Shown here: one piece after another, positions 1 to 43,197 of the stretch
How the letters are laid out: the number at the start of each line of letters is the position of its first letter
Position numbering within the stretch: the stretch's first letter is position 1
IMG/VR virus record: IMGVR_UViG_3300037313_001003
Location: 1 to 43,197 of that record
Reading direction: 5' to 3' (one strand)
Length of the DNA stretch: 43,197 nucleotides
Source of the DNA: a virus
Lineage: Duplodnaviria; Caudoviricetes
Notes under the pieces: model-generated
The model's input: only the letters and a program-made list of their open reading frames with translations
Told to the model about the DNA's origin: nothing
Database searches by the model: none
Program-made: the position numbers and the translations under genes

Positions 1-80
1 ATTCGTAAATCCTAATCTCGGTGTCAGTGTATAGCCTGATGCTGAGATCTCGGCAGAAGGCTCCCTCGGGGGCCTTTTTT
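1..80 (+). ncRNA. Putative ~80-nt small RNA, copy 1
   Basis: Single-stranded 5' tail, hairpin ATCTCGGTGTCAG/CTGATGCTGAGAT (G-U pairs on + strand), then an intrinsic terminator; identical to copy 2, which has a promoter directly upstream. Confidence 0.65.
57..80 (+). terminator. Intrinsic terminator
   Basis: AAGGCTCC-CTCG-GGGGCCTT stem-loop running into a T6 tract. Confidence 0.8.
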
Positions 81-1400
81 CGTACTCACACAGTCTTATT
101 AAAAACTTATCAACCAGGCCGCAGCAGTCGGCCATAGTTTGTGTGTAGCAGTTTGGCAAGTAGCGCAAGATGCCAGGATATGGCAGCCCTCCGGGTCTAT
201 TTGCCGAAGCTCATACACATAAACATCTGCAATACATTAAGACAGTAACAGTACTCCTTAAGAGTAGCTTGACTGGCTAAATCTAGTAACAAGCATGGGG
301 ATTTCTAGCCCCGCCTAACCTAATCAGTTAGACAGAAGTAGGCTTAGAGTGGTGATGTCTAACGAGCCACTAGGGAGATATAGATTTCCCCACCATTGTT
401 ACTAGACCTATAGCTGGCGGTAAACACCCTTTGCTCAGAGCTTTTAGTATGGTTTGCAAGCCTACTAAATAGGGGCTGAGAGCGCATTAAAGCGTGGCGC
501 TAGGTGAGCTTTTGCCTCCAGCTATAGCTAGTTAAGTACTTAGGGAGTGTTACAGCGATAGTAAGTAACCCAGTGTGGACTAATGAGTTAAGGAATGCCA
601 CACCGTCAAAGTCACCTCCGCATAGGACTGACAGGTGAATACTCATTCTTACTGTCGTAGCTGGTAGGTGATAAAAGGTGTTTCGGGTTGCCAATCCCTT
701 CACTGCCAGCGCTGTTACTGTCTTAATGAGTATTACTTCGACTACAGGGCCACTGGGTAACAGGCTATAAAGGTAGTGAGTAGGTATGAGAGGGGCATCC
801 TGTCGGGGCAACGACGATTGTGTGTAGGAGGCATCTGAAACACATGGGCCATAAACGCTTAGTTTGCAGGATAGCGAAGCGAGTGCGTCTGTCCGTCCCC
901 TCGTACTTACTCATTACTGGTTGCCCCATAGACGCCTTGTAGTTGAGGGTAGAAGTGATACTAAGGTAGTGGTACATATGAAAGGCTAGACTGAGGGGTT
1001 GCGATATCCTCCATTCGAGTGTTTTAGGATCACTGAGTTGGACACAAACAACAAAAGTTGTAAGTAACAACATAACAAATACCTAGCTATGTATGAAAAG
1101 ACGGTAGCAATAGACTAGCGCCTTAGAGACGTTGCTTCATGGTTGGTAAGTCATCTTATGAGGGTAACCGTGAACAGTCACAGTAAGACTGAGCGGTATG
1201 GAGATTTAGTGCTTAAAACACCTAAGTCTTCATCATATCACATAGCGAACTAGCTAAGATATGAGCAAATCTACAATATGCAAAGTAAAGAACGAAGCGT
1301 ATATATAAGAATATAAACAGGAGGATGTTGCAGGAATAGTGACCGGAGCACCGCACCTTATGAGGCCACAGGCTCCCTACGTTATTAATGTAATGTACTC
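81..1400 (+). ncRNA. Giant structured ncRNA, copy 1 (~1.3 kb; GOLLD-like architecture, family unverified)
   Basis: No credible ORF. Long-range helices: 235-251/712-728 (perfect 17 bp), 252-262/539-549, 556-565/648-657, 739-750/934-945, ~999-1011/1321-1332. G-U pairs indicate + strand. Scaffold conserved in copy 2. Ends approximate. Confidence 0.85.
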
Positions 1401-1418: not shown

Positions 1419-1447
1419 TTGATTAAATAACATGAGCGAGAGATAAT
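1419..1447 (+). promoter_or_regulatory. Sigma70-type promoter for integrase
   Basis: TTGATT-17-GATAAT; copy 2 keeps similar hexamers and the 17-bp spacing while the spacer diverges. Confidence 0.65.
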
Positions 1448-1585: not shown

Positions 1586-1717
1586 ATGGTGAGAACCAAA
1601 AATGTCTGTGGCTGCCCTCATCTCTGGGTCTTCGACAACTTCAAGAGAACGCAGCACACAGACAGTATTAGTGTACTCCTCTTTCTGTTCGACAAGAAGG
1701 TGAGATATGTCAATTAG
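1586..1717 (+). CDS. Putative 43-aa upstream ORF overlapping the integrase start
   Basis: AAGGAAGG SD, ATG 1586, MVRTKNVCGCPHLWVFDNFKRTQHTDSISVLLFLFDKKVRYVN*; open with identical length in unit 2. Confidence 0.5.
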   Translation: MVRTKNVCGCPHLWVFDNFKRTQHTDSISVLLFLFDKKVRYVN

Positions 1718-2537
1718 TGAGGCTTTTCAGTCTTATGCTAATGACGTAATCGTGTTCAAGAACCAGAGCAAGAAAACTGAGGAAAATCACTTTATCGTCA
1801 TGAAGGCGCTGATATCTCATTTCGGAGACGTTGAGATAGAGTCGCTTACTTTCCCTATGGTTCGCGATTGGAAAGCTAAACTAGTGGCTACACGGTCCGA
1901 TGCTACTGTTAGGAACTATATTATCAAGTTACGGATCGTCCTCGATTACCTGCACACTCGCGGGGTGGACTGTTTATCACCTGAGTCAATTCCGGTTCCG
2001 AAACGAGCCGATAAAGTACCCGTGTACCTTACAAAAGAGCAAGTCGCACAATGCATCACTGCTACTAAGAAGCTCAAGAACAAGGCAATTGTCTCCCTGC
2101 TCTACTCCAGCGGTATTCGTATTAGTGAACTGTGTTCCTTGGACCGGGGCCAAATTAAAGACGGGAGGTTTACGATCGTTGGTAAAGGCGGTAAGGCGAG
2201 ACTATGCTTTATAGACGCACGAACACAAATGTTACTCGACTGGTACTTAGCCGAACGAGATGACAATAACCCTGCGCTGTTTGTCTGCGAGAGCGGCACA
2301 CGCATACGGCCTGGTACGATCCAAGAGACGTTTAAGACTATCCGCAAGCAAACCGGTTTAGATGTCCACCCACACACCCTACGACACTCATTTGCGACGA
2401 ATCTGCTTTCCACCAACACCAACCTGTACCACGTATCACGTATGCTCGGACATCAACAGTTGAACACGACAGCTACTTATCTTCACGTCGTAGACCATGA
2501 CCTCCAAGAGGTCTATATGAAGCATCATACGGTATAG
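1707..2537 (+). CDS. int: Tyrosine recombinase/integrase (XerC/D-like)
   Basis: Catalytic motifs SGIRISE, GKGGK, HTLRH, LGH and TTATY. Confidence 0.95.
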   Translation: MSISEAFQSYANDVIVFKNQSKKTEENHFIVMKALISHFGDVEIESLTFPMVRDWKAKLVATRSDATVRNYIIKLRIVLDYLHTRGVDCLSPESIPVPKRADKVPVYLTKEQVAQCITATKKLKNKAIVSLLYSSGIRISELCSLDRGQIKDGRFTIVGKGGKARLCFIDARTQMLLDWYLAERDDNNPALFVCESGTRIRPGTIQETFKTIRKQTGLDVHPHTLRHSFATNLLSTNTNLYHVSRMLGHQQLNTTATYLHVVDHDLQEVYMKHHTV

Positions 2538-22617: not shown

Positions 22618-22914
22618 TCAAGCTCCCCACTTCTTAGCGGTGTGGTGTTTCGTGTCCTGTACCATGACTTTCTTAGCGTCACCACCATTAAATGTTACGG
22701 TGAATGTCACATTACCTGAGGCTTTGGCAGCGCTCATGCCCTTAAACAGTTGTAGTACCATTTCCAGGGCCTTCGTCGTGTTCTCAACCTTCTCAGTGTG
22801 AATGAGCTGCGTATCGATGGTACTGACTTCGCCCTCATGCTTTTTAATAAACAGTGTCACCACGCCAAAGTCTAACCCTTGGTGACTATCTGCGATGATC
22901 TTATTAATGTCCAT
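22618..22914 (-). CDS. Hypothetical protein
   Basis: Coupled to the terminase nuclease gene. Confidence 0.7.
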   Translation of the reverse strand: MDINKIIADSHQGLDFGVVTLFIKKHEGEVSTIDTQLIHTEKVENTTKALEMVLQLFKGMSAAKASGNVTFTVTFNGGDAKKVMVQDTKHHTAKKWGA

Positions 22915-23564
22915 TAGACGAACATCCCATCCTTTCCGAATAACTGTTCTTCATCGTGATACGGTATCTGTGTACTAATTGGTTGCTCTGTCTGGTACAA
23001 CTGCCATGCTCCAGCTAGGGCCATGATCAAGTCGTCGTGTGCCCCCTTTTCTGCCTGGGCTTTCCAACTACTTGAGGTTTGGGCGATGATAAATGAGAAC
23101 ATTTCATTGATGGTGGGTTTGTCGTATATACGAATGAGTTTGTTATCGATAGCTTCTTTAAGCATCGCGAGCATAGTCGGACGGGTTGCAGAGTTAGTCG
23201 TATAGCCGAGTCGGACAGAGTTACCTGTACTTTCGGTACTGCCGATGTTTTGCTTCTCTTGATATATGTGGTACTTGCCTTGTCGATTGAGTGCGGCCAG
23301 ACGTTCCATCTCCGCCACGCCACCGTTATTGCGTTCAAAGGCCACCACTGGCTGAACCTGCGTTGCATCATAAATCCTTTCTAATTCGTTATGTACTAAG
23401 GGTGTCATCTCGGTTGCGAGTACCTTGGAGTGATAGACTACTGGTACATCGAGCTTAGTCTTACTGAGGAACTGTACTGCTGAGTAGTCCAACCCTCCCC
23501 AGGCTGTATCGGCGAAGACAACGAAAAACTCATTCGGTTCGTAATGACGGTACCGCCTAAACAT
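22914..23564 (-). CDS. Terminase large subunit, nuclease domain (separate ORF; start revised)
   Basis: ADTAWGGLDYS, FERNNGG, GAHDDLIMALA RNase H-like motifs; ATG overlaps upstream stop. Confidence 0.88.
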   Translation of the reverse strand: MFRRYRHYEPNEFFVVFADTAWGGLDYSAVQFLSKTKLDVPVVYHSKVLATEMTPLVHNELERIYDATQVQPVVAFERNNGGVAEMERLAALNRQGKYHIYQEKQNIGSTESTGNSVRLGYTTNSATRPTMLAMLKEAIDNKLIRIYDKPTINEMFSFIIAQTSSSWKAQAEKGAHDDLIMALAGAWQLYQTEQPISTQIPYHDEEQLFGKDGMFV

Positions 23565-24237
23565 TTTTTTTACCCTGTTCGTGTTCGGCCGCTCGGAGCA
23601 CGCCGTCTGGCGTTCCCATGTCAGCAAAGTAACCTTGGTGCTCTATGAACTGAGTACCCAGTTGGCGATAGTAATTGTGTATGTCGACAATCTCGAGTTC
23701 ACCTGATTGTGCCGGAGTCATGCCATCAATGAAGTCGAATACCCGTTCATCGTAGTAGTAGCCGATAATAGCTTTACGCCCGATATCTATGTAACGAGGT
23801 TTCTCAATGATAGTGTCAGACTCGGGATGCCAGACTGAATGACTCGTGCCATGTTCAAACTCATGCCAGAACAAAGTAGGTTCAGTCTGTGACTTGAGTG
23901 GAGGATCGTAGTAACAGTCACCGAGAAGTAACGGGAAGATCCCTTTTACAAGATCTCGAGCCTTACTTATAGCATCAGCTACTCCTTTCGGTTCTGCCTG
24001 GACGCGGTAGATAAGATCTAATCCTACACGGTCGCCTTCTTTGAAGTAGGATGCGATGTCTCCTATAGCTTGAGGGCTTGCAATAATCACGGCTGAGTCA
24101 CAACCCATCGCTTTTAGCGTGTTAAGGGGGTACTCAATAGCCGGGCGATCGTAAACCATAGCCATTGCTTTAGACTGCACTTCGGTCTGTGGGGCAAGTC
24201 GTGAGCCTGAGCCACCAGCAAGTATTACGCCTCTCAT
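23557..24237 (-). CDS. Sugar-phosphate nucleotidyltransferase (RmlA/RfbA-like)
   Basis: GVILAGGSGSRL, Q.EPKG.ADA, LGD, EKP, GELEI.D, DMGT motifs. Confidence 0.9.
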   Translation of the reverse strand: MRGVILAGGSGSRLAPQTEVQSKAMAMVYDRPAIEYPLNTLKAMGCDSAVIIASPQAIGDIASYFKEGDRVGLDLIYRVQAEPKGVADAISKARDLVKGIFPLLLGDCYYDPPLKSQTEPTLFWHEFEHGTSHSVWHPESDTIIEKPRYIDIGRKAIIGYYYDERVFDFIDGMTPAQSGELEIVDIHNYYRQLGTQFIEHQGYFADMGTPDGVLRAAEHEQGKKNV

Positions 24238-25037
24238 ACCGTCATTGGCTCCTTAGCCTGCTCTAGGTACCACTGGAGGGCTTCCATATCGAAGTAACCA
24301 TCACCAGATGTAACGAAAGCTTCCTGTGCTGATTCAGGGTACTCTTGCTTAAACAATCGTCCTTGCGTCTTACGCTTCTGATCTAGAAACTCTGCTGAGT
24401 AGAAGTCACTAGCCCTGTAGAAATGCGCCGCCCACCCTGTTTCACCCATAACCGATGAGTCGTAAAATGTCTTAAATTCATTGAACCCATTAGCAGTTGT
24501 CTCAATCACTGCCTTACCGCCAGGTACAAGCGCGGAGTCCACACTAGCTAATAGCTCGGTGAAATTCTTATAAAATGCTGCTTCGGATAAGTGTAGGTTA
24601 TGGATAGTCTTAGAGCGTCCGAAATCTGAGTTCTCAGCTGTGCCGATGATGTAACGACTACCGTTATGACTGTTCTGCAATTCATATTTGGAGTTGTACT
24701 TCAGGATTCCGTTCTTGCCCTCGAGCGGTAGATTGTTATACGCACAGTATGCAGCTAGGTAATGCTTGACCCGGGCTAGCAGATCTTTAGCATTATCCGA
24801 GATGTCAGCAACAACTACTGATAAGGTGTTCTCTTTGAGTAAGAAGTCAGCAGTGAAGGCTGCGAGAATGAAGCTAGAGAAGCCTTGCTGCCGTGCTTTA
24901 AGGATTATGTCCCTGCCTGTAGCGTCTTGTACGAATTTCTCTTGAATAGGGTTTAGTGTAAACGGTAACTCCTGCCTGTCCTTGTTGACGATAGTCAGGC
25001 GAGCTTCAATGAATCGCTTGTAGGGTTCGTAGATCAT
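24234..25037 (-). CDS. Terminase large subunit, ATPase domain (separate ORF)
   Basis: LNPIQ Q-motif, LKARQQGFS Walker A, LHLSE Walker B, ETTANG coupling motif, FKQEYP. Confidence 0.92.
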   Translation of the reverse strand: MIYEPYKRFIEARLTIVNKDRQELPFTLNPIQEKFVQDATGRDIILKARQQGFSSFILAAFTADFLLKENTLSVVVADISDNAKDLLARVKHYLAAYCAYNNLPLEGKNGILKYNSKYELQNSHNGSRYIIGTAENSDFGRSKTIHNLHLSEAAFYKNFTELLASVDSALVPGGKAVIETTANGFNEFKTFYDSSVMGETGWAAHFYRASDFYSAEFLDQKRKTQGRLFKQEYPESAQEAFVTSGDGYFDMEALQWYLEQAKEPMTV

Positions 25038-28154: not shown

Positions 28155-28183
28155 ATAGTATCACGCTCATGTTAATAAGTCAA
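28155..28183 (-). promoter_or_regulatory. Sigma70 promoter upstream of middle/packaging genes
   Basis: TTGACT-17-TACTAT with TG extension. Confidence 0.6.
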
Positions 28184-29029: not shown

Positions 29030-29106
29030 GAGAGTATTGTACTACTTAGGCGGATTTGTGGTCACCTGTATTGGCTTCTGAGCCTGGGGTAGCCAAGTCG
29101 CTAACC

Positions 29107-29319
29107 TCACCTAGCTTTCAAGTATTTCATACTATCTAAGCACTTATTCACAAACTCCAGCTTTAACACGTCTTCGGTGTTTCTGGTGTAGGGTGAGGAT
29201 ACGTCCAGACTTTTTGCTCTATGTAATTCTCGCAAATGACTGATATTCATATCTAACTGTTTCAGACCATCTACGAACTGCTGCCCTAAGTAGGCTTCTT
29301 GTTTAGTTTCGTTACTCAT
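29107..29319 (-). CDS. Hypothetical protein
   Basis: GGAG SD; early-gene array. Confidence 0.6.
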   Translation of the reverse strand: MSNETKQEAYLGQQFVDGLKQLDMNISHLRELHRAKSLDVSSPYTRNTEDVLKLEFVNKCLDSMKYLKAR

Positions 29320-32177: not shown

Positions 32178-32684
32178 TCATGATGGTTCCTTTGCGGATT
32201 TGAGAGTATCTGTAGTGGTTTCTGAGTCTGTACTAGCCAAGTCGTTAACCGTATCTAGCCGCCAACAATCGTCATACCACTTTTTATCTACTATCGACAT
32301 ATCCACATGCTGCGAGAGTTTATCGTGAAATAGCGTACCTCGATAACCAGCTGAAAGTAGGGTGTGAGCAAAAGCTGTATGTAAAACGCGCTTATCGTCT
32401 GCTTTGATAGACTTAATCTTCTTAATCTCTTTTTCGCTTAGGTGTAAACCCGCCTCGGCAAGTTTCCGAATATCGCTCTGAGCCTTGTGTTTGTAGTCTT
32501 GTAAGTGTTCGGAGTAGATAGCAATTACCTGTGGTATATCAATCTTCTCTATTTCTAGTAATTGCAATATTAGGAAATTTATCTCCTGACGGCTCAAGCC
32601 GTTCAATACCTTAGCAGCTTCACTTAGGCTAGCGACTTGTTTGCCACTGGCTTGAGTTGTCTCTGATTTACTTGAATCCGCCAT
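32178..32684 (-). CDS. Hypothetical protein
   Basis: 168-aa ORF with AAGG SD. Confidence 0.7.
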   Translation of the reverse strand: MADSSKSETTQASGKQVASLSEAAKVLNGLSRQEINFLILQLLEIEKIDIPQVIAIYSEHLQDYKHKAQSDIRKLAEAGLHLSEKEIKKIKSIKADDKRVLHTAFAHTLLSAGYRGTLFHDKLSQHVDMSIVDKKWYDDCWRLDTVNDLASTDSETTTDTLKSAKEPS

Positions 32685-33021: not shown

Positions 33022-33399
33022 TTATCTCCTGTAACTTCGTTGTTTAACGACGGTGTAGGTGTGGTCGAGGTTCATGGGTAGCCATATTTCCTCTAAAAAC
33101 TTACGCCGCCACTTGTAATCTGTGGTTTCGACTCCTTTTGCCTCATAAAGTTCAAATGAGCCGTCGTTATGGTGTATCCTGAAATCGACTTTATGTGACA
33201 CTTTGAACGCTGGTAGTCCATCGGGACGATGACACCAGACTTCAACCTTGTACTGCCGATCGTAGGTTTTAATGTCCTTGGCTTTTACTCGTAGATCGAG
33301 CTCTGCAGCCACACTTGCTTCAAACTTACTGTCGTACTTGTAACCGTCGTACTCCGTTTTCTTCGCACCGTACTTGTTGCCGTATCGTTGGTAGTACAT
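33022..33399 (-). CDS. DUF1064-like PD-(D/E)XK nuclease
   Basis: NKYGAKKT..DG..YDSKFE, VDF, EAKG. Confidence 0.85.
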   Translation of the reverse strand: MYYQRYGNKYGAKKTEYDGYKYDSKFEASVAAELDLRVKAKDIKTYDRQYKVEVWCHRPDGLPAFKVSHKVDFRIHHNDGSFELYEAKGVETTDYKWRRKFLEEIWLPMNLDHTYTVVKQRSYRR

Positions 33400-33641
33400 T
33401 AGTCGCGACTACTCATCTCAAAACGGTATTCCAGTTTGAACCAGAACTTATTGCGCTGTGGCTTACGGAACATGGTTCCTTGGTCACGGCTGATCGAGAT
33501 CTCGTAGCCGTCGTTTCTCAGTTCGTAGATGCGGGCTGAGTAGCGCGGGGTGATCTTAAACAGTTCATAGTTCGATACTCGGTCGGTGGTCTGTAATTTG
33601 CGGAGTATTTGTTTATAGTGAGTCTCTTTGACTGCTTGCAT
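33399..33641 (-). CDS. Winged helix-turn-helix protein
   Basis: QILRKL...RYSARIYELRNDGYEI pattern. Confidence 0.7.
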   Translation of the reverse strand: MQAVKETHYKQILRKLQTTDRVSNYELFKITPRYSARIYELRNDGYEISISRDQGTMFRKPQRNKFWFKLEYRFEMSSRD

Positions 33642-35418: not shown

Positions 35419-35934
35419 TTAATAGCAAGCAACCTTATGGCGGCAAACGCCCCACTGTCCTATAAAGCTGTGGCCGTTAGCGGCGTATATCTTATAGGCC
35501 CAAGCGACGTTAATGCTTGCTACTTTCAGTTCCGCTTCGCTTGGTCTGGTGAGCGCATTAGCGCCCCAGATGTTTACTTGGAAGCAGCCAACCGAGTAAT
35601 CGTATGTTGACGGGTTATAATTTACTTGCCCCGGGTCTAACCCACTTTCGGCGGTAGAAACTTCTAACGCTACAGTTTGAGACCAATCATACTTGGATAT
35701 CTCAGCTTCACAACTCCCTGTTGGAACTGTTGGTGTAGGTTGCACTGGCTGTTGTGCTTGTTGAGCTTGTGGCTCTGGCGTCTCAGTTGCCGCAACCTTC
35801 ACCTGCGGTGCTGTTGATTGCACCGCTACCGATTCTGACTTTTTAATGTTCTGAGACGCTCGATTCGTGTTGTTTAGGGTCTGATTTGTTGGTATCGCCA
35901 AAATTAAGGCAATAGCAAACCCGACCAATCGCAA
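35419..35934 (-). CDS. Secreted lytic transglycosylase / lysozyme-like protein
   Basis: Signal peptide, Pro/Gln/Thr linker, AESG catalytic Glu, GCFQVN motif; TTG start. Confidence 0.82.
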   Translation of the reverse strand: MRLVGFAIALILAIPTNQTLNNTNRASQNIKKSESVAVQSTAPQVKVAATETPEPQAQQAQQPVQPTPTVPTGSCEAEISKYDWSQTVALEVSTAESGLDPGQVNYNPSTYDYSVGCFQVNIWGANALTRPSEAELKVASINVAWAYKIYAANGHSFIGQWGVCRHKVACY

Positions 35935-36104
35935 TGAACGAATGGCGTACCTCTTTTTAAGTAGATTGAAGGCTCTACATTAGCCTTGGTGAATATGGCT
36001 TCACCGCACCGTATAAACCTCTATGTTCTACCTCTGTTGTGAGCCGACTCATCAAGTCGTTGGCTGCTCATCGGTTGAGGAGAACTCCAGCTTTTTAAGG
36101 GCTG

Positions 36105-36153
36105 GTCTGATGTCGATGATCAGATTTCGTAAATCCTAGTCTCGGCATCAGAC
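36105..36153 (-). promoter_or_regulatory. Leader hairpin, predicted sRNA target
   Basis: Inverted repeat GTCTGATGTCGA/TCGGCATCAGAC; 36126-36151 matches 36427-36452 at 23/26 positions. Confidence 0.6.
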
Positions 36154-36174
36154 TTAAATTAAAAAGTCCGGGGG

Positions 36175-36203
36175 TGGAAATCCCGAACCGTATCTGTTAT
36201 GCT
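36175..36203 (+). promoter_or_regulatory. Phage-borne promoter for the target tRNA
   Basis: TGGAAA-17-TATGCT with TG extension, 12 bp before the tRNA fragment. Confidence 0.5.
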
Positions 36204-36215
36204 AGATGACGTTAT

Positions 36216-36261
36216 GCCATCTTAGCTCAGGGGTAGAGCACTTCCATGGTAAGGAAGGGGT
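36216..36261 (+). tRNA. 5' fragment of tRNA-Thr(GGU); probable att core region
   Basis: GCCATCT-TA-GCTC AGGGGTA GAGC-A-CTTCC ATGGTAA GGAAG-GGGT: intact D and anticodon arms, no T-arm or 3' acceptor strand. Confidence 0.88.
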
Positions 36262-36343
36262 TCTGACCTCTGTACGGTCGAGTTTTCCGAGTGCTAAGCT
36301 TTTAAGGCAACGATTGAAGCGTAATGCTTAATTGTTACTTAAG

Positions 36344-36372
36344 AGTATAGAGCATAAGCGCACTATTGTCAA
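36344..36372 (-). promoter_or_regulatory. Near-consensus leftward sigma70 promoter (candidate early/lytic promoter)
   Basis: TTGACA-17-TATACT on minus strand, pointing across att. Confidence 0.8.
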
Positions 36373-36390
36373 TATATATTGTTAATTAGC

Positions 36391-36419
36391 TTGAACAAAT
36401 TGCGAAACTTTGCTATTAT
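36391..36419 (+). promoter_or_regulatory. Rightward promoter for sRNA / giant RNA
   Basis: TTGAAC-17-TATTAT with TG extension; predicted start ~36426. Confidence 0.7.
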
Positions 36420-36425
36420 ATAAGT

Positions 36426-36505
36426 ATTCGTAAATCCTAATCTCGGTGTCAGTGTATAGCCTGATGCTGAGATCTCGGCAGAAGGCTCCCTCGGGGGCCT
36501 TTTTT
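36426..36505 (+). ncRNA. Putative ~80-nt small RNA, copy 2
   Basis: Bounded by promoter and intrinsic terminator; identical to 1-80. Confidence 0.7.
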
Positions 36506-37706
36506 CGTACTCACACAGTCTTATTAAAAACTTATCAACCAGGCCGCAGCAGACGGCCATAGTTTGTGTGTAGTAGTGAGATGGTGTCAGAGAGCGAGTA
36601 TAAACGTGTGGGTGAAATAAAATACTAGTTACCCAGGTTTAATGATGAAGCAGAGTCGCTAATGCCTCGACCGTCTATGCTCTGTACTGGCGACGGATAG
36701 CCCATAGTACAGCGCGCTCAGGTTCGAATCCTGGCCATCTCTCTCATACACATAAACATCTGCAATACATTAAGACAGTAACAGTACTCCTTAAGAGTAG
36801 CTTGAGGGTAGTAGTGCTAGTAGTAACAAGCCTGGCGGTCATCGACTTTTGGGCTGAACCGAGTCCAGGAAAGCCCCGTGCTACTAGCTCTCATACCCTT
36901 AAGAGTTCACTTATGAGACTTTGGGTCCTTTTATAAGGCTTAGGGAGTGTTACAGCGATAGTAAGTTACGCCTAAACGAATAACTATCACCCAGAGCGTG
37001 TTTAGTGATAGGTTTACTGTCGTTAGCTGGTAGGGGCGTCAGCCTGTACGACCTCTGGTGACAAGTCGTAACTACCAGCGCTGTTACTGTCTTAATGAGT
37101 ATTACTTCGACTACAGGGCCACTGGGTAACAGGCTATAAAGGTTGAGGTCAGTTTGTCGGGACTCTCTATGCGTAATGGCGAGAGATAGATACACAGATC
37201 TGGGAAGAATCCGAAAGGAGCGTCCCGGCGGCATCTGACTTTAACTGGTTGCCCCATAGACGCCTTGTAGTTGAGGGTAGAAGTGATACTGAGGTAGTGG
37301 TACATATGAAAAGCTAGACTGAGGGGTTGCGATATCCTCCAGACGAGTGTTTTAGGATCACTGAGTTGGACACAAACAACATAACAAATACCTAGCTATG
37401 TATGAAAAGACGGTAGCAGTAGACTAGCGCCTTAGAGACGTTGCTTCATGGTTGATAAGTCATCTTATGAGGGTAACCGTGAACAGTCAACAAAGACTGA
37501 GCGGTATGGAGAGTTAGTGCTTAAAATACTAAGTCTTCATCATATCACATAGCAGACTAGCTAAGATATGAGCAAATCTACAATATGCAGAACCTAAAAC
37601 TAGGCGTATATATAAGAATATAAGCAGGAGGATATTGCAGGAATAGTGACCGGAGCACCGCACCTTATGAGGCCAAGACTCCCTACGTTATTAATGTAAT
37701 GTACTC
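36506..37706 (+). ncRNA. Giant structured ncRNA, copy 2 (~1.2 kb)
   Basis: Same scaffold helices as 81-1400 with different inserts; pairing-preserving changes such as CTGCCAGC vs CTACCAGC opposite GCTGGTAG and GTAAG vs ATAAG opposite CTTAT. Confidence 0.85.
36578..36741 (+). other. tRNA-like module embedded in the giant RNA
   Basis: 7-bp acceptor GAGATGG/CCATCTC and T-arm TCAGG-TTCGAAT-CCTGG with a ~130-nt non-canonical interior. Confidence 0.7.
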
Positions 37707-37723
37707 CATCAAATAAAAATCTA

Positions 37724-37752
37724 TTGTCAAAACATAATCTAAGCGAGATAAT
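37724..37752 (+). promoter_or_regulatory. Integrase promoter, unit 2
   Basis: TTGTCA-17-GATAAT. Confidence 0.65.
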
Positions 37753-37850
37753 GAGAACGCAACGGGAAGCTTAAGCGACCTAGACTCTCTGCAGGGGGAA
37801 GTCCGGCTAACATAGTCTGTACCCTGTTAAATCTCTATAAGGAAGGCATT

Positions 37851-37982
37851 ATGGTGAGAACCAAAAATGTCTGTGGCTGCCCCCATCTCTGGGTCTGGAT
37901 AAACTTCAAGAGAGAACAGCACACAGACAGTATTAGTGTACTCCTCTTTCTGTTCGACATGAAGGTGAACTATGTCAATTAG
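37851..37982 (+). CDS. Putative 43-aa uORF overlapping int, unit 2
   Basis: MVRTKNVCGCPHLWVWINFKREQHTDSISVLLFLFDMKVNYVN*. Confidence 0.5.
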   Translation: MVRTKNVCGCPHLWVWINFKREQHTDSISVLLFLFDMKVNYVN

Positions 37983-38802
37983 TGAGGCTTTTCAGTCTTA
38001 TGCTAATGACGTAATCGTGTTCAAGAATCAGAGTAAGAAGACTGAGGAGAATCACTTTATCGTCATGAAGGCGCTTATATCTCATTTTGGAGACATTGAG
38101 ATTGAGTCGCTTACTTTCCCTATGGTTCGTGACTGGAAGATGCTTCTCGACAAGACCCGTTCTGATGCTACCGTCAGGAACTACATTATTAAACTACGGG
38201 TGGTGCTGGACTACTTAGAGAAACACGGCCACAGCGGCCTGAGAGCCGATCAGGTGCCGGTTCCAAAGCGCCGGGATAAAGTGCCGACATTCCTAACTAA
38301 GCACGAAGTAACCCAGTGTATTGACGCTACTAAGCGGATTAAGAATAAGGCTATCATTGCCCTGCTCTACGCCTCTGGGATACGTATCTCCGAACTGTGT
38401 CAGCTCGATCGTGGTGAGTTAAAAGACGGCTCATTTACAGTAATTGGTAAAGGTGGTAAGGCTCGACTCTGCTTCTATGACGAGCGGGCTAATACGCTTA
38501 TTAAACTCTACTTAGAATCCAGGGAAGATAATAACCCTGCTCTCTTCTTATCAGATATGGGACTCCGGATTACGCCAGGCTGTATTCAGGAGACATTTAA
38601 GAGTGTCCGTAAGCAAACCGGCCTCGACGTCCATCCGCATACTCTTCGGCACTCTTTCGCAACCAACTTATTACAATCGAATACAAATTTGTTCCATGTA
38701 TCTAAACTCTTGGGTCATGCTCAATTGAACACCACAAGTCAGTATCTCCATGTAGTTAATGAAGACCTTCGTTCTGTATATATGAAGCATCATACGGTGT
38801 AG
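37972..38802 (+). CDS. int: Tyrosine recombinase/integrase, unit 2
   Basis: Same catalytic motifs; 55 of the first 56 residues identical to unit 1, more diverged after. Confidence 0.95.
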   Translation: MSISEAFQSYANDVIVFKNQSKKTEENHFIVMKALISHFGDIEIESLTFPMVRDWKMLLDKTRSDATVRNYIIKLRVVLDYLEKHGHSGLRADQVPVPKRRDKVPTFLTKHEVTQCIDATKRIKNKAIIALLYASGIRISELCQLDRGELKDGSFTVIGKGGKARLCFYDERANTLIKLYLESREDNNPALFLSDMGLRITPGCIQETFKSVRKQTGLDVHPHTLRHSFATNLLQSNTNLFHVSKLLGHAQLNTTSQYLHVVNEDLRSVYMKHHTV

Positions 38803-38984
38803 TGCGCTTACACTCTCCCACGGCATATTCTCCCTTTTGAGGCGGGATGGGGGTGTGGGCCTGCAATAGCCCGAAAGAAGAGATGTTTGTTTGTGTATAG
38901 ACTTCAGCAAAGAAAATCGAAGGATTGAAAGGAACGAAGGGAACGAGCCCTGAGAGAGTATAAAAGCACTAAATTGTTAAGGTA

Positions 38985-39218
38985 CTAGCGGTCTATGAGC
39001 TGGTAGAATGGATCAAAACGCTCAGGAATAACTTGTAGAAGATGCAAAGCAGTAACGCCGATCCCACCAATAACCAAAGGGCGAGTATGATGATTTTCGA
39101 GTCCTCGCTTTGCAGCATGGGTGAGCGTTTCGCTAGCCAGTAAGTCCCACGCCAGTACAAAAGCCCCAAGCGCAAGCCAACCGTATGTGCCGTTGGTAGT
39201 TTCATTAGTCCTCCTCAT
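38985..39218 (-). CDS. Small membrane protein
   Basis: Homolog of 2719-2955. Confidence 0.8.
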   Translation of the reverse strand: MRRTNETTNGTYGWLALGAFVLAWDLLASETLTHAAKRGLENHHTRPLVIGGIGVTALHLLQVIPERFDPFYQLIDR

Positions 39219-39339
39219 TATTTAGTCCTGATAAGTCGTCGATAAATATGTCATGCACCTCAACAAGGCGCGGTAGTATGATTTCTTTAACCATTGGATA
39301 GACAAACTCACGGTCAGGCTCCGGTTCATTCTCAGGCAT
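39205..39339 (-). CDS. Small hypothetical protein (44 aa, not in ORF track)
   Basis: MPENEPEPDREFVYPMVKEIILPRL...; homolog of 2942-3070. Confidence 0.65.
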   Translation of the reverse strand: MPENEPEPDREFVYPMVKEIILPRLVEVHDIFIDDLSGLNNEED

Positions 39340-39571
39340 AAACGTTCCTCAGTTTAGTTTCCTGTGGTGACCGGCTCATAACGTGCTGGAACTCATACCA
39401 TGGGTCTTGCCCTTCCGTGATGTCGTGAGCAAAGTTCGGGCCGGCATTATCTTGAACGGTCACAAAGAAATGTTCAGGGTTTGTCCGTACCATCCAGAGC
39501 GTAATAAGAAGTCCGGCGTTTCTCCGTTCTGCTAGGTCTATTACTGATTCGTCTGGTTGTAGTTGTTCCAT
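39332..39571 (-). CDS. Hypothetical protein
   Basis: Diverged homolog of 3063-3305. Confidence 0.7.
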   Translation of the reverse strand: MEQLQPDESVIDLAERRNAGLLITLWMVRTNPEHFFVTVQDNAGPNFAHDITEGQDPWYEFQHVMSRSPQETKLRNVYA

Positions 39572-39760
39572 GCTTTTTCCTTTAATCTGTATCCCATAAC
39601 CACGGCCAAGGCGGTTAATTAGTGCGTGACTTCTTGGAGTAAATCTAGAAGTCGTTGTGTGTCTGCTTTGCTATAGGGGTCGAGTTTGCCCTCTTTTATG
39701 ACTGTGGATAAAAACTCACAGAGCCATACCCAGTCATTCACTGGGAGGTTCACTGTGATG

Positions 39761-40009
39761 CTATTCAACATTCAGTGTCCTATAGACGGCATGCTGGTTA
39801 CTATCTGCGAGTATCCACATGCGCTCTTTTACAAGTTTCTTTAGTGCCTTTAACTGATGGCCTTCAGGTGTGGCTGCTTCTATGGTGGTAAGCAAGTCTC
39901 CTAGCGCCATGTTAGTGTTTGTGCGAAGCTGGCTTGCTATCGCTGTGCCATACTCGTACTCTTTAGTCGTATGGTCGTTCTTTTCTTTACTTTCCGATGC
40001 TGGTTGCAT
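39761..40009 (-). CDS. Hypothetical protein (unit 2 only)
   Basis: GGAGG SD; helical; no counterpart at this position in unit 1. Confidence 0.7.
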   Translation of the reverse strand: MQPASESKEKNDHTTKEYEYGTAIASQLRTNTNMALGDLLTTIEAATPEGHQLKALKKLVKERMWILADSNQHAVYRTLNVE

Positions 40010-40097
40010 AGAACTATCCTCTTCTTTTCTTGGCCGCAGATAGGGATATAGATTGTTAATTTACGAGGTAGTTTTACGACTTGCCAAGGTCGAGCTT

Positions 40098-40421
40098 TTA
40101 CTCCCAATCTGGGGGGAAGTTACTGCTTCTTATATCTTTATAGTGAAATTCCTCGAACACCTCCCGATCCATATCTGAGATGTTGGGTAGGTTGAGGTGT
40201 ACGGTGAATTCCTTATCGAGCATGTACTCTGCTACTTCATTAAAGGTAGAGTTAGAGTTCCATAAGTAATGACCGGAATTTGAACCATCGTCTTCAGTCG
40301 AAACAATAAAGACATGGTCGTAACAAGCGAGCTCACCCATAAACGTGTATAAATAGGTGTTCTCTCTGGTGCCTTCGAGTTCTTGACCGCCAAAGGTGAA
40401 TTTAATGCGTGGCTCAGACAT
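40098..40421 (-). CDS. Acidic hypothetical protein (unit 2 only)
   Basis: Coupled to exonuclease stop. Confidence 0.7.
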   Translation of the reverse strand: MSEPRIKFTFGGQELEGTRENTYLYTFMGELACYDHVFIVSTEDDGSNSGHYLWNSNSTFNEVAEYMLDKEFTVHLNLPNISDMDREVFEEFHYKDIRSSNFPPDWE

Positions 40422-41211
40422 ACTTCATCCGCTCTTCTGATTGCCTAAACTCAGCGACTCGCGCTTTCATGGGGTGTCCACAATCGCCACAGCGGAAGTA
40501 CTGATACTTGTTGGCTTTGGTTGAGGCGTACTTCATACCGGCTTTGATGTTTTCTGAAAGACAAACCCGACAAGCGTTCGGCCGTTCGGCGAGCACGTTC
40601 ATTGCGGGGTGATTCTTGATCCACGGGCGGAGTTCTAAATACAAGGCTTCCAGAGATTCAATATCTCCCTTGTTGTACTTCTTCATGTGTTTCCAGGCTT
40701 TCTTATCGCCTGCCATACAGCCGTCCCAGGTCTTCATACCGCCGGCGTCGAGCTTGTGCTGGAGTTCCAAAGACTTGCAGAGGTCTGACAGCTTATTAGA
40801 GGTATGAGCGCCGCTACGCTTGGCTTCTAGCTTGGTGTCTATCTGGGCGTACGGCATCGGCGGGTATAAATGGTGGATCTGCATCCGAGCTTGTACCTTC
40901 TTTTGATCGAAGGAATTGCCATTGTGAGCGATAACCACATCGGCTTTAGTGAAGAGGTCGGCCAGGTACTCAACCACTTTGCGGTCGTTCGACTTGTCAC
41001 GCTTGTAATCTAGGGGGAAGTCAGGTAATGCAACGACAGTGACTTTCTTATCCCCGAGCCACTTGTAAGCAAAACAGAGGATGTACCAGTCGTTGACGAT
41101 TCTGCGTTCGATAGGGCGGTCATCCCAGAGTCCCCATCGTTTTTCAGTTGTTTCTATATACGAAGTCTCGATATCGTACAGTAAGATGCGCGGATTAGGC
41201 TGCTTGTTCAT
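40414..41211 (-). CDS. DnaQ/RNase H-like exonuclease with Zn ribbon
   Basis: DIET, AHNGNSFD, YNKGD, CRVC...CGDC. Confidence 0.85.
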   Translation of the reverse strand: MNKQPNPRILLYDIETSYIETTEKRWGLWDDRPIERRIVNDWYILCFAYKWLGDKKVTVVALPDFPLDYKRDKSNDRKVVEYLADLFTKADVVIAHNGNSFDQKKVQARMQIHHLYPPMPYAQIDTKLEAKRSGAHTSNKLSDLCKSLELQHKLDAGGMKTWDGCMAGDKKAWKHMKKYNKGDIESLEALYLELRPWIKNHPAMNVLAERPNACRVCLSENIKAGMKYASTKANKYQYFRCGDCGHPMKARVAEFRQSEERMKYV

Positions 41212-41590
41212 AAATACCCTCTACAGCTATAAAACCTAGCTGCTTAGTTAAGTGATTACCGATACGTTCAGAACGTCCGGCTATTCGTGGTGAGGTGTGT
41301 GTTTCAGCTTGCTCATAGAAGTATTGAATTGCAGCTTCTATGCCCCAGGTTCCGAGTCGTTGTTCGCGTGGTGTATTGTCTAAAATGTCTACCAGTTCGT
41401 GCATCTGACTACGGGTCGGTTTCGGCGGCCCATAGAACAGTTCATGGTGGAGGTCACGGTGCGCTTGTACATCCATTTTTATGATTAACCCCCTGTTATT
41501 TCGGAAGCGCTTCTCCATGGCCTCGCGGTAGACGCGGCGGTGGTAGAACGCATGGTGGTGGTTCTGGTCGTATGACTCAGAACACGCCAT
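41195..41590 (-). CDS. His-rich hypothetical protein
   Basis: Positional diverged homolog of 4109-4417. Confidence 0.65.
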   Translation of the reverse strand: MACSESYDQNHHHAFYHRRVYREAMEKRFRNNRGLIIKMDVQAHRDLHHELFYGPPKPTRSQMHELVDILDNTPREQRLGTWGIEAAIQYFYEQAETHTSPRIAGRSERIGNHLTKQLGFIAVEGIYEQAA

Positions 41591-41594
41591 TGCT

Positions 41595-41870
41595 TTAGCT
41601 CTTCCGTCCTAGCGCTAAGCTAAGAAGTACTGGCACAATTTGCGTTCTGATGGCTGCAAGCCCCGCTCCCACAGCGCCAGCAATGGTTAACTGAACCTCG
41701 GCGGCTGAGTGTGCAGCTAATATATGAGCAGCAAAGTACGCCGATGCTACCTGCCAGGCTGTATGAAAAGCCCTGTCGGCCGCTGGATGGGCGATAAGCC
41801 AAGCGTTCACTGCGCGAACCGTAGATATAATCGAATAAGTAACTCGGGCTAAAAAAGCTTTAATTTTCAT
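41595..41870 (-). CDS. Putative holin
   Basis: RAFHTAWQ motif, hydrophobic, after endolysin. Confidence 0.7.
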   Translation of the reverse strand: MKIKAFLARVTYSIISTVRAVNAWLIAHPAADRAFHTAWQVASAYFAAHILAAHSAAEVQLTIAGAVGAGLAAIRTQIVPVLLSLALGRKS

Positions 41871-41879
41871 GATTACTCC

Positions 41880-42680
41880 TTACTTGAAAACACTAGTTAG
41901 TTTGCTCAGTATTGATTGGACTATTTCGAGTATTTGTTTAAGCAGTGTGTTGTTCTCCTTAACTACTGCGTTAGTGTCATCAACGGGTACGGGAGCGGGT
42001 GGAATGGTGGGCGGTGGTGGTACAGGAACTTCGACAGGTGCCGGTACTGGCTCTGGTACAGGAGCCGGTGTTGGTTGTGGTTGGACAGCGTGATAGCCGT
42101 ACTTCTTCAGAACGTCTAAAGATACGAAACAGGCGTTCGTGTCGAGTGGTGAGCCTTGGTACTGGTGAATAATGTAAGGAGGCGTGTTCGGTATGTCCTG
42201 GTCTGGCGAATAGCGGTAATCTGCGAGCCATAGGCCACAGTTCTTTAATACGTCCTTAAAGCCGTACTGCTGGAGCATTGAGGTGTAGGTGTAGAACAAC
42301 GGCCATACGCCGGTCTTTTCGTGTACTCGATTTACAAATGCTAAACACCAAGCGTTAGGGTCTGCTGGTGGGTTCATACTTGCAGTGAGTTCGTAGTCGA
42401 GAATAAGGATGTCACCGTGAGCGAGTGGAGAACATGCACCGATAAAGAAATCAGCTTCTTGGATAGGGTCTGCCCCACCGGCGAAGTGGTAGAGGCCAGG
42501 AACCTTGCCTAAGCGGATAGCGTTATTGTAGTTTCGAGCAGCCTGGGTGTCGTAATAGCCCTGCTTACTTCCGTAGTAGAAACCGCTCATCTTCATAAAG
42601 ACGATGGGTGACTGGTCAGCGTCCATGTTGTATTGACCCTGGGCGTACGAAACATCAAAGAACTTAATATAGTTAGACAT
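41880..42680 (-). CDS. Endolysin, GH25 muramidase with Pro-rich linker
   Basis: DVSYAQG, GLYHF, LDYE, LWLADY, DTN motifs. Confidence 0.9.
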   Translation of the reverse strand: MSNYIKFFDVSYAQGQYNMDADQSPIVFMKMSGFYYGSKQGYYDTQAARNYNNAIRLGKVPGLYHFAGGADPIQEADFFIGACSPLAHGDILILDYELTASMNPPADPNAWCLAFVNRVHEKTGVWPLFYTYTSMLQQYGFKDVLKNCGLWLADYRYSPDQDIPNTPPYIIHQYQGSPLDTNACFVSLDVLKKYGYHAVQPQPTPAPVPEPVPAPVEVPVPPPPTIPPAPVPVDDTNAVVKENNTLLKQILEIVQSILSKLTSVFK

Positions 42681-43101
42681 TAGCTTCCTCCTTTTTTGCT
42701 ATGTATCTTGCGTGCCAATAGTCTTTAGTTGATTGTTTAGCGTTGTATCGTCTCCAAGAGGCAGTTCGACAGGTCTTGCAGTAGCGTTGCTTTGCGTTCC
42801 TGCCGTCCAATGGATGCCCTTTAGCGCATTTATCCAGATTGTCGTAGTATTGTTTCGCTTTTACATTGGCGTGAAGTGCTTGGTGTTCACTTCTAGTCAT
42901 AGGTGTGAGGTGGTCAGGATTTACGCACCACTTGTTTTCGCATTCATGATGAATAACCAAGTCGCTGCTAATAAGTCCGTGTTTATCCATATATGCGAGA
43001 CGGTGCTGCGGGTACGTAACACCGTTTCGGGTCTTACGGTAGTAACCTCTGTGAATTGTGCCAGTGCCTCTTTTGCAAGGAGTGTCGTGAAAGGTAATCA
43101 T
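42673..43101 (-). CDS. HNH homing-type endonuclease (unit 2 only)
   Basis: HRLAY, IHHEC.NKWCVNPDHL, CAKGH...CKTC. Confidence 0.88.
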   Translation of the reverse strand: MITFHDTPCKRGTGTIHRGYYRKTRNGVTYPQHRLAYMDKHGLISSDLVIHHECENKWCVNPDHLTPMTRSEHQALHANVKAKQYYDNLDKCAKGHPLDGRNAKQRYCKTCRTASWRRYNAKQSTKDYWHARYIAKKEEANV

Positions 43102-43197
43102 TTATCCCCTCTTTAATCCTTTAACTGCTGCGTATATAGCGAATAGTGATGCTAAGACACCGATTGCCGCTTTAACGAGAGCGACTTCCCGACGGGT
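43101..43197 (-). CDS. Partial coiled-coil/TM lysis-associated protein
   Basis: 3' end homologous to 5352-5585 (TRREVALVKAAIGVLASLFAIYAAVKGLKRG). Confidence 0.75.

Follow-up and report, generated by a model that had tools for sequence, protein, structure and literature searches.

A candidate antisense RNA beside attP and a proposed two-part lysogeny switch in Saccharibacteria phages

The window, by which we mean the whole 43,197-nt stretch of DNA that was analysed, holds two sister phages. Unit A (1-36425) is a complete temperate phage with integrase, early recombination genes, terminase, major head protein and lysis genes, and its minus strand carries every recognised gene but int. Unit B (36426-43197) is the beginning of a sister phage. 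The units share 1-127 and 36426-36552, which are identical over exactly 127 nt, presumably the k-mer overlap left by an assembler. Phage B is also found alone as a 37.9-kb record (L002), in which the early arm differs and the sRNA and its target are the same as in the window. In run X1, a 321-nt contig (36232-36552) is common to both variants at 47x and its branches have 25x and 26x; in 8 DNA runs contigs stop at the att core, and no contig crosses the stretch. The window is therefore either an assembly join or a tandem junction, as two prophages in tandem are indistinguishable from a join. The host belongs to the Saccharibacteria, as indicated by an integrase relative named Patescibacteria, by the best genome matches (Saccharibacteria) and by a 46-nt match to tRNA-Thr(GGT). 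The overlap and the integrase regions are as follows.

1-127, plus strand: second copy of the sRNA, in the exact 127-nt overlap with 36426-36552.
1707-2537, plus strand: tyrosine integrase of phage A, 76% identical to the phage B copy.
36506-37971, plus strand: ORF-free stretch with conserved blocks between the sRNA and int, with no plus-strand ORF of 60 aa.
37972-38802, plus strand: tyrosine integrase of phage B (276 aa, PF00589), with no arm-binding domain detected.

Stretches like the one upstream of the phage B int occur at 81-1706 in unit A and upstream of int in four relatives (L007, L008, L010 and L077). They are ORF-free over 0.5-1.6 kb, combine conserved blocks with variable inserts and have no Rfam match. 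Other relatives have a small ORF between sRNA and int, and some have DnaA-box-like repeats there. The stretch might serve as an origin or be transcribed into a long structured RNA. The insert at 36578-36745 in unit B has a tRNA-like acceptor stem and T-arm around about 130 extra bases; its closing stem is shared with the shorter insert of unit A, and neither ARAGORN nor Rfam makes a call. Three relatives (L003, L006 and L009) carry a second family of conserved non-coding blocks, unlike that of the window, at the same position upstream of int. Elsewhere in unit A, terminase-like matches fall in two ORFs (22914-23627 and 24234-25037) with a nucleotidyltransferase-like ORF between them (22914-25037 in all), which may be an insertion in a split terminase gene. 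The early region also contains a 66-nt direct repeat (29050-29115 and 32194-32259) whose copies are 77% alike and 3.1 kb apart.

The predicted sRNA and the early leader lie on either side of two divergent promoters.

36426-36505, plus strand: predicted sRNA of 80 nt, with a free 5' tail, a hairpin and an intrinsic terminator; a promoter-to-terminator unit (fold z -4.9).
36391-36419, plus strand: sRNA promoter, TTGAAC-17-TATTAT with TG, heading the unit that leads on to int.
36427-36452, plus strand: sRNA seed of 26 nt, of which 25 pair with the target, two as G-U.
36344-36372, minus strand: early promoter, TTGACA-17-TATACT (11/12).
36216-36261, plus strand: attP core, the 5' half of the host tRNA-Thr(GGT), by an exact 46-nt match.
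36195-36203, plus strand: likely replacement -10 element, TG-n-TATGCT, judged by sequence and by the same arrangement in an integrated prophage (G356:C3).
36156-36189, minus strand: intrinsic terminator t1, an 8-bp stem with a U-run by folding, directly upstream of the target.
36126-36151, minus strand: target site in the early leader, with 26-nt complementarity to the seed.
36105-36153, minus strand: target hairpin H1 (-19.3 kcal/mol, z -4.1).
36087-36104, minus strand: hairpin H2 with a weak boxA-like sequence, from folds.
35419-35934, minus strand: first early gene, encoding a signal peptide, a P/Q-rich linker and a lytic-transglycosylase-like domain (phrog_15428).

The original prediction had described back-to-back promoters here and a plus transcript that ends at a terminator about 80 nt on. 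Both promoters were confirmed, at minus 36372-36344 and plus 36391-36419, and the fold of 36426-36505 supports the transcript: its energy is -34.4 kcal/mol (z -4.9), 0/200 shuffles were as good, and its terminal hairpin is of the terminator type with a U-run. This hairpin was absent from the output of a simple terminator scan. Rfam gave no sRNA or leader match in the window (E up to 1), one weak unrelated hit aside, and only tRNA in 16 related loci.

The predicted 26-nt complementarity between sRNA and early leader also held. Copies of the 26-mer occur only at 2, 36126 (with 3 differences) and 36427; on both strands, there is otherwise none within 9 mismatches. The three differences between seed and target amount to one A-C mismatch and two G-U pairs. 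The energy of the duplex is -39.0 kcal/mol; across unit A, 2406 windows average -12.6 (sd 3.2), and the best unrelated site after the target reaches -26.2 kcal/mol. When both molecules were folded, binding gained 13-22 kcal/mol once the target was transcribed, and the gain was largest just as H1 emerges. The pairing in the window is far beyond chance. Folds of the sRNA and H1 also bear out the proposed toehold geometry, in which the free tail of the sRNA meets the loop and upper stem of H1; the sRNA covers the 5' arm and loop. Pairing of the second arms, which had been put forward as well, is trivial because it follows automatically when two hairpins have complementary arms, and it adds no evidence.

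It had also been claimed that the sRNA is identical in both units. This identity is not independent evidence, because the units overlap by exactly 127 nt. The sRNA is nonetheless common to phages A and B, and in phage B the target site is the same while the bases around it differ. Likewise, the idea of immunity shared by two units rests on the assembly overlap and reduces to two homoimmune sister phages.

The leader has a fixed order: early promoter, tRNA fragment (attP), t1, H1, H2, often a boxA-like site, and the first gene. The early promoter is the best consensus match within the 19 kb scanned and holds the same position in relatives. The attP core sits between this promoter and the early genes; its 46-nt match was found in contigs that continue as tRNA, and an annotated tRNA-Thr matches too. 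Relatives have tRNA fragments at the equivalent place in the leader. An annotated phage collection gave only short tRNA-Thr matches, in 10 records. The terminator t1, which the original prediction had overlooked, is present in 19 of 20 leaders compared with 31/607 control positions. The strand after H1 can pair back onto the 3' arm and U-run of t1 (shuffle p 0.007 in the window phage), and this back-pairing ranks first or second for the phage's own sequences in only 9/20 leaders. In all 20 leaders, the end of the duplex and the base of H1 are no more than 2 nt apart, so the structure of H1 itself seems to matter.

The target lies about 180 nt from the first ribosome-binding site and the start of gene 1. 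No ORF over the target is conserved among 19 leaders, and there is no conserved leader peptide. The first early gene aligns with the first genes of 11 relatives, with E-S and Q invariant, and this motif suggests a lytic-transglycosylase-like fold family. In three phages (L005, L013 and L020) the first gene is different and the target is kept. The apparent start codon of gene 1 is ATT at 35943, right behind the ribosome-binding site, and the first genes of L022 and L004 have ATT or ATA at the equivalent position.

Covariation of sRNA and target across related phages had been proposed as a check on the pairing. Related loci were gathered by integrase and att-based scans. In a blind test of 36 loci, promoters upstream of int were called without a view of the targets, and the next 32 nt after each called promoter were paired against every leader. 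A promoter equivalent to that of the sRNA was called in this way in relatives, and in 17/36 loci the top score went to the phage's own leader, alone or jointly with a near-identical sister. Of the 19 misses, five had no promoter call, one was a self-overlap artefact, one ranked third and 12 were at background. In most of these 12, host or cargo DNA follows att, and in two cases the far end of the prophage then proved to contain the target. The top blind score of L007 was discarded because its promoter call lay inside its own leader; the real L007 pair has -40.5 kcal/mol. This pair, those of L015, L017 and L027, and two prophages were recovered by hand only and not by the blind test. The RNA of L082 pairs with the L005 leader at -44.1 kcal/mol.

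We then considered a set of 20 pairs from non-redundant Saccharibacteria phages and prophages, chosen after the pairs had been inspected; L002, L019 and L297 were excluded as near-duplicates of the window, L017 and L286, respectively. The own leader came first in 20/20, with a mean of -39.1 kcal/mol for own pairs compared with -18.1 (sd 3.9) for others, and the seeds share a median of 10/26 nt. From these energies, each RNA would be expected to act on its own leader only, except for partial cross-talk between L286 and L287. Pairing begins at base 1-3 of the predicted transcript. In one subfamily, seed differences are mirrored in the target in 7/7, 6/7 and 3/4 cases, and the remainder stay paired as G-U. 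An ungapped repeat search missed the bulged pairs of L017, L019 and L027, and energy-based pairing was therefore used.

Two loci with weak repeats and the wrong layout (L024 and L077) were dropped. The L029 RNA has no target in the first 4 kb of its record, which may be cut, and L490 and L491 have no sRNA-type promoter upstream of int. No target was found for elements that combine an integrase with an sRNA-like unit (L014, G001, G002, G296 and G390); for the L014-type RNA, a search of 5 genomes gave only its own locus or scattered matches with 2 mismatches. L014, L162, L163, L484 and L488 are elements other than phages; they combine a related integrase with a small ORF and an sRNA-like promoter-to-terminator unit, for which no target was found.

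The orientation of the copies distinguishes between RNA pairing and DNA sites. In the window and L007, int is transcribed away from the early genes, and the copies form a direct repeat. In the other 18 of the 20 pairs int is co-oriented with the early genes and the copies form an inverted repeat, about 1.7-2.3 kb apart with int between them. The sRNA always matches the early transcript and never its complement. In two complete prophages (G271:C9 and G356:C3), 31.5 and 26.4 kb separate the copies, which nonetheless pair over 19 and 25 nt, respectively. Because the match flips with the direction of transcription and survives a separation of 26-31 kb, it reflects RNA pairing and not a DNA site. 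Integrase arm-type sites, which the original prediction had named as what could undo it, are thus largely refuted by orientation: both orientation and distance vary, and the unit A integrase has SAM-like and catalytic domains only, starting at the core-binding domain. We conclude that the match between sRNA and target is a real, family-wide feature and probably a variant of RNA-based phage immunity.

With attP between the early promoter and the early genes, the two become separated on integration. The two complete prophages show this directly, as promoter and genes are at opposite ends. In G271:C9, a host promoter and a full tRNA-Ala lead into t1 and H1, and the early promoter is at the other end. 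G356:C3 has the same layout with the att type of the window, and the promoter of the tRNA is supplied by the phage arm. The likely -10 element at 36195-36203 in the window would similarly drive the host tRNA after integration. In both prophages the early promoter reads out into host DNA, and at the right ends of L082 and L009 it reads into host genes. Integration changes the regulatory circuit in this way and would thereby affect early expression.

The original prediction had cast the sRNA as a substitute for a CI repressor. None of the 85 window ORFs matched a CI-type family. In related records, of which 4/9 are at least 90% complete, HTH_3 was found in 0/9 and peptidase S24 in 0/5, and in 11 relatives no ORF located between sRNA and int matched a repressor; one of these ORFs was weakly like replication initiators. 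This is a temperate phage without a recognisable CI, and an unrecognised repressor is possible. Two further promoters close to consensus, at 28183 and 16189, remain beside their genes when the phage integrates, and the sRNA does not target them (-17.1 and -14.5 kcal/mol). Thus, something else must silence them, and the RNA is not the whole of lysogenic silencing. The prediction stands insofar as the RNA appears to be antisense, covaries with its target and occurs where no CI is recognised. The RNA alone does not replace CI, as integration itself removes the early promoter and the two other promoters escape.

Several observations leave room for a protein regulator. The early block contains a winged-helix gene (33399-33641), and promoter spacers are repeated. 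In unit A, the middle promoter (28155-28183, minus strand), with its spacer at 28160-28177, and the promoter upstream of int (1419-1447, plus strand) have this spacer in common (13/16), a possible operator; a terminator-like site (28365-28351) lies just before the middle promoter. The spacer of the early promoter (36349-36366) has inverted copies at the int stop codon, at 2534-2551 and 38799-38816 (16 and 15 of 18), which might be either an operator or the scar of an inversion that turned the sRNA-int cassette round.

Based on these results, we propose that the 80-nt unit is probably a trans-acting antisense RNA that shuts off the early operon and serves as the immunity determinant of a two-part, repressor-free switch. 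In the first part, which the two complete prophages show directly, integration parts the early promoter from the early genes and leaves t1 guarding the genes. In the second part, the RNA would be made in the lysogen, as the prophage retains the sRNA promoter. The free 5' tail of the RNA would dock on the H1 loop of any transcript that gets past t1, either by leakage in the lysogen or from an incoming phage with the same seed, and the whole 5' arm would be unzipped. Unzipping of H1 would turn the early operon off and so make the lysogen immune to phages that carry the same seed; immunity groups would be set by the sequence of the seed. On infection, accumulation of the sRNA together with integrase would favour lysogeny. 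As t1 lies upstream of the target, the sRNA cannot act on t1 itself.

How would the duplex silence the operon? The final step that we rank as most likely, if tentatively, is cleavage of the 22-27-bp duplex by host RNase III, after which RNase J would degrade the early transcript, now left unprotected. This proposal draws on host gene content: host-class genomes encode RNase III in 79/81 and RNase J in 40/41. Constrained folds gave no sRNA-induced terminator downstream of the target, and Rho (TIGR00767) was found in 0/81 sampled host-class genomes, which are possibly incomplete (control 8/14). RNase J1 degrades 5'-monophosphate RNA and can dislodge a stalled polymerase (PMC8501993).

Ranked second, and in our estimate rather unlikely, is the same repression with another final step, in which H1, H2 and boxA would form a nut-like or rRNA-leader-like antitermination element and the RNA would keep polymerase from becoming terminator resistant. 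NusB is present in 80/81 host-class genomes, and the end of the duplex at the base of H1 in 20/20 leaders would fit this idea. We searched with a boxA matrix built from 14 host rRNA-leader sites and anchored by pattern in 14/19 leaders; it was anchored in this way because a de novo motif search in rRNA leaders gave the processing stem. BoxA scored above shuffles after the target in 10/19 leaders and near the early promoter in 7/18, compared with only 1/19 in control windows after the sRNA, where a boxA-like site had been suspected by eye and was rejected on this count. However, several of the 19 leaders are close kin, and in the window phage itself the downstream boxA is weak (p 0.18). In addition, boxA pairing shows no consistent change on sRNA binding, and the early block has few strong minus-strand terminators. 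The boxA-like site near the early promoter is a lead only for how lytic transcripts pass t1. Many host rRNA leaders (L508-L527) have a terminator-like hairpin with a U-run between promoter and boxA, and boxA and NusB may act on intrinsic terminators in this host class, where Rho was not found.

It is improbable that the RNA blocks translation of the first early gene only, in the manner of c4, sar or a type I antitoxin. The leader is long and structured and gene 1 often encodes a secreted cell-wall enzyme, and c4 and sar do act in this way (PMC12197685). Nevertheless, the distance of about 180 nt to the ribosome-binding site and the lack of a conserved leader ORF argue against this idea and, together with the count of 0/81 for Rho, mean that the P4- or c4-like route of the original prediction cannot apply here. 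The three phages that keep the target with a different gene 1 argue against it as well, and no Rho was found that could convert a translation block into operon shut-off (0/81).

A very improbable reading is that the RNA is an activator and that opening H1 removes an inhibitory or nuclease-sensitive long hairpin, favouring early expression. The strand after H1 could indeed pair back onto t1 in a long irregular stem that RNase III might cut, and the 9/20 leaders in which the own back-pairing ranks first or second would agree with this. In the other 11 leaders, however, back-pairing is no better than in controls (mean -11.9 vs -9.8), and the RNA promoter remains in the prophage at the head of the int unit, where a lysogeny function would be expected. 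Finally, it is extremely improbable that the copies act as DNA, whether as integrase arm-type sites or as an operator, or that they are a relic duplication: in the window they do form a direct repeat flanking att at 65 and 165 bp, but they are inverted across int in co-oriented phages and 26-31 kb apart in prophages, their differences are mostly G-U compatible, the integrase has no detected arm-binding domain, and the seeds are unrelated although the integrases are related.

The antisense shut-off that we favour may reach further. It is possible, and to our minds somewhat doubtful, that the whole Saccharibacteria phage family switches without a repressor protein, by integration and a 50-95-nt RNA with a reprogrammable 25-nt seed that sets superinfection immunity groups, acting without Rho via RNase III and RNase J or via NusB antitermination. 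If so, a minimal genetic switch could consist of one recombination event and one short RNA, immunity groups could be read and predicted from the 25-nt seed, and antisense control would be seen to work in bacteria without Rho. It would also provide about 20 naturally near-orthogonal RNA-target pairs for building regulators (own -39 vs other -18 kcal/mol). To our knowledge, a few enterobacterial examples of phage immunity based on RNA have been described, and each of them is linked to Rho, to the translation of a gene in the leader or to a protein repressor. The design proposed here is unlike these and is widespread in a single group of hosts, the biology of whose phages is barely known. In sum, this analysis contributes t1, a test of repeat orientation, prophages in their integrated form and a survey of host genes.

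How does this arrangement compare with known systems? In pT181, pIP501 and CopA/CopT, a free tail or loop starts pairing with a bulged target hairpin, and specificity groups arise by co-variation. The window RNA resembles them in its tail- or loop-initiated pairing and its co-varying specificity groups. In the pT181 and pIP501 attenuators a terminator forms downstream of the target upon RNA binding, whereas here the terminator lies upstream in 19/20 leaders and constrained folds gave none downstream. In lambda sib, a terminator lies across att from int and read-through RNA refolds into a longer stem, with no antisense RNA involved. Here too, t1 lies across att from int and a longer stem is possible by back-pairing, but the back-pairing holds in 9/20 leaders only and is kept where int points the other way.

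P4 immunity is Rho-dependent, whereas Rho was not found in the host class (0/81). P4 CI RNA, like the RNA here, is a small RNA that pairs with the nascent leader of the lytic operon, and it blocks expression (PMC4825925), but it is processed from the leader that it controls and has two flanking target sites. The window RNA instead has its own promoter and terminator and one 22-27-nt target that lies up to 31 kb away. P1/P7 c4 and P22 sar are likewise trans-encoded antisense RNAs whose target match sets the heteroimmunity of sister phages (PMC12197685); both stop an antirepressor from being translated, close to its ribosome-binding site, and act in support of a protein repressor. By contrast, the target here heads the whole early operon, behind a terminator and far from a start codon, and no CI was found; the c4-type Rfam models do not match the window.

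In the mycobacteriophages BPs, Brujita and Charlie, site-specific recombination sets the state through a compact switch around attP, as it would here (PMC3694055); there, attP is inside the repressor gene, and integration removes a degradation tag. In the window, the att core is part of a non-coding leader, with the early promoter on one side and the early genes on the other, and the trans factor is predicted to be an RNA. Such an RNA is not described for phages of Saccharibacteria or other Patescibacteria in the literature covered, which mostly excluded subscription journals, or in the accessible part of 10.1101/2024.03.08.584096. Thus, the switch that we propose would work like P4 CI and c4 but without their defining features, and it shares the logic of the BPs type but not its parts.
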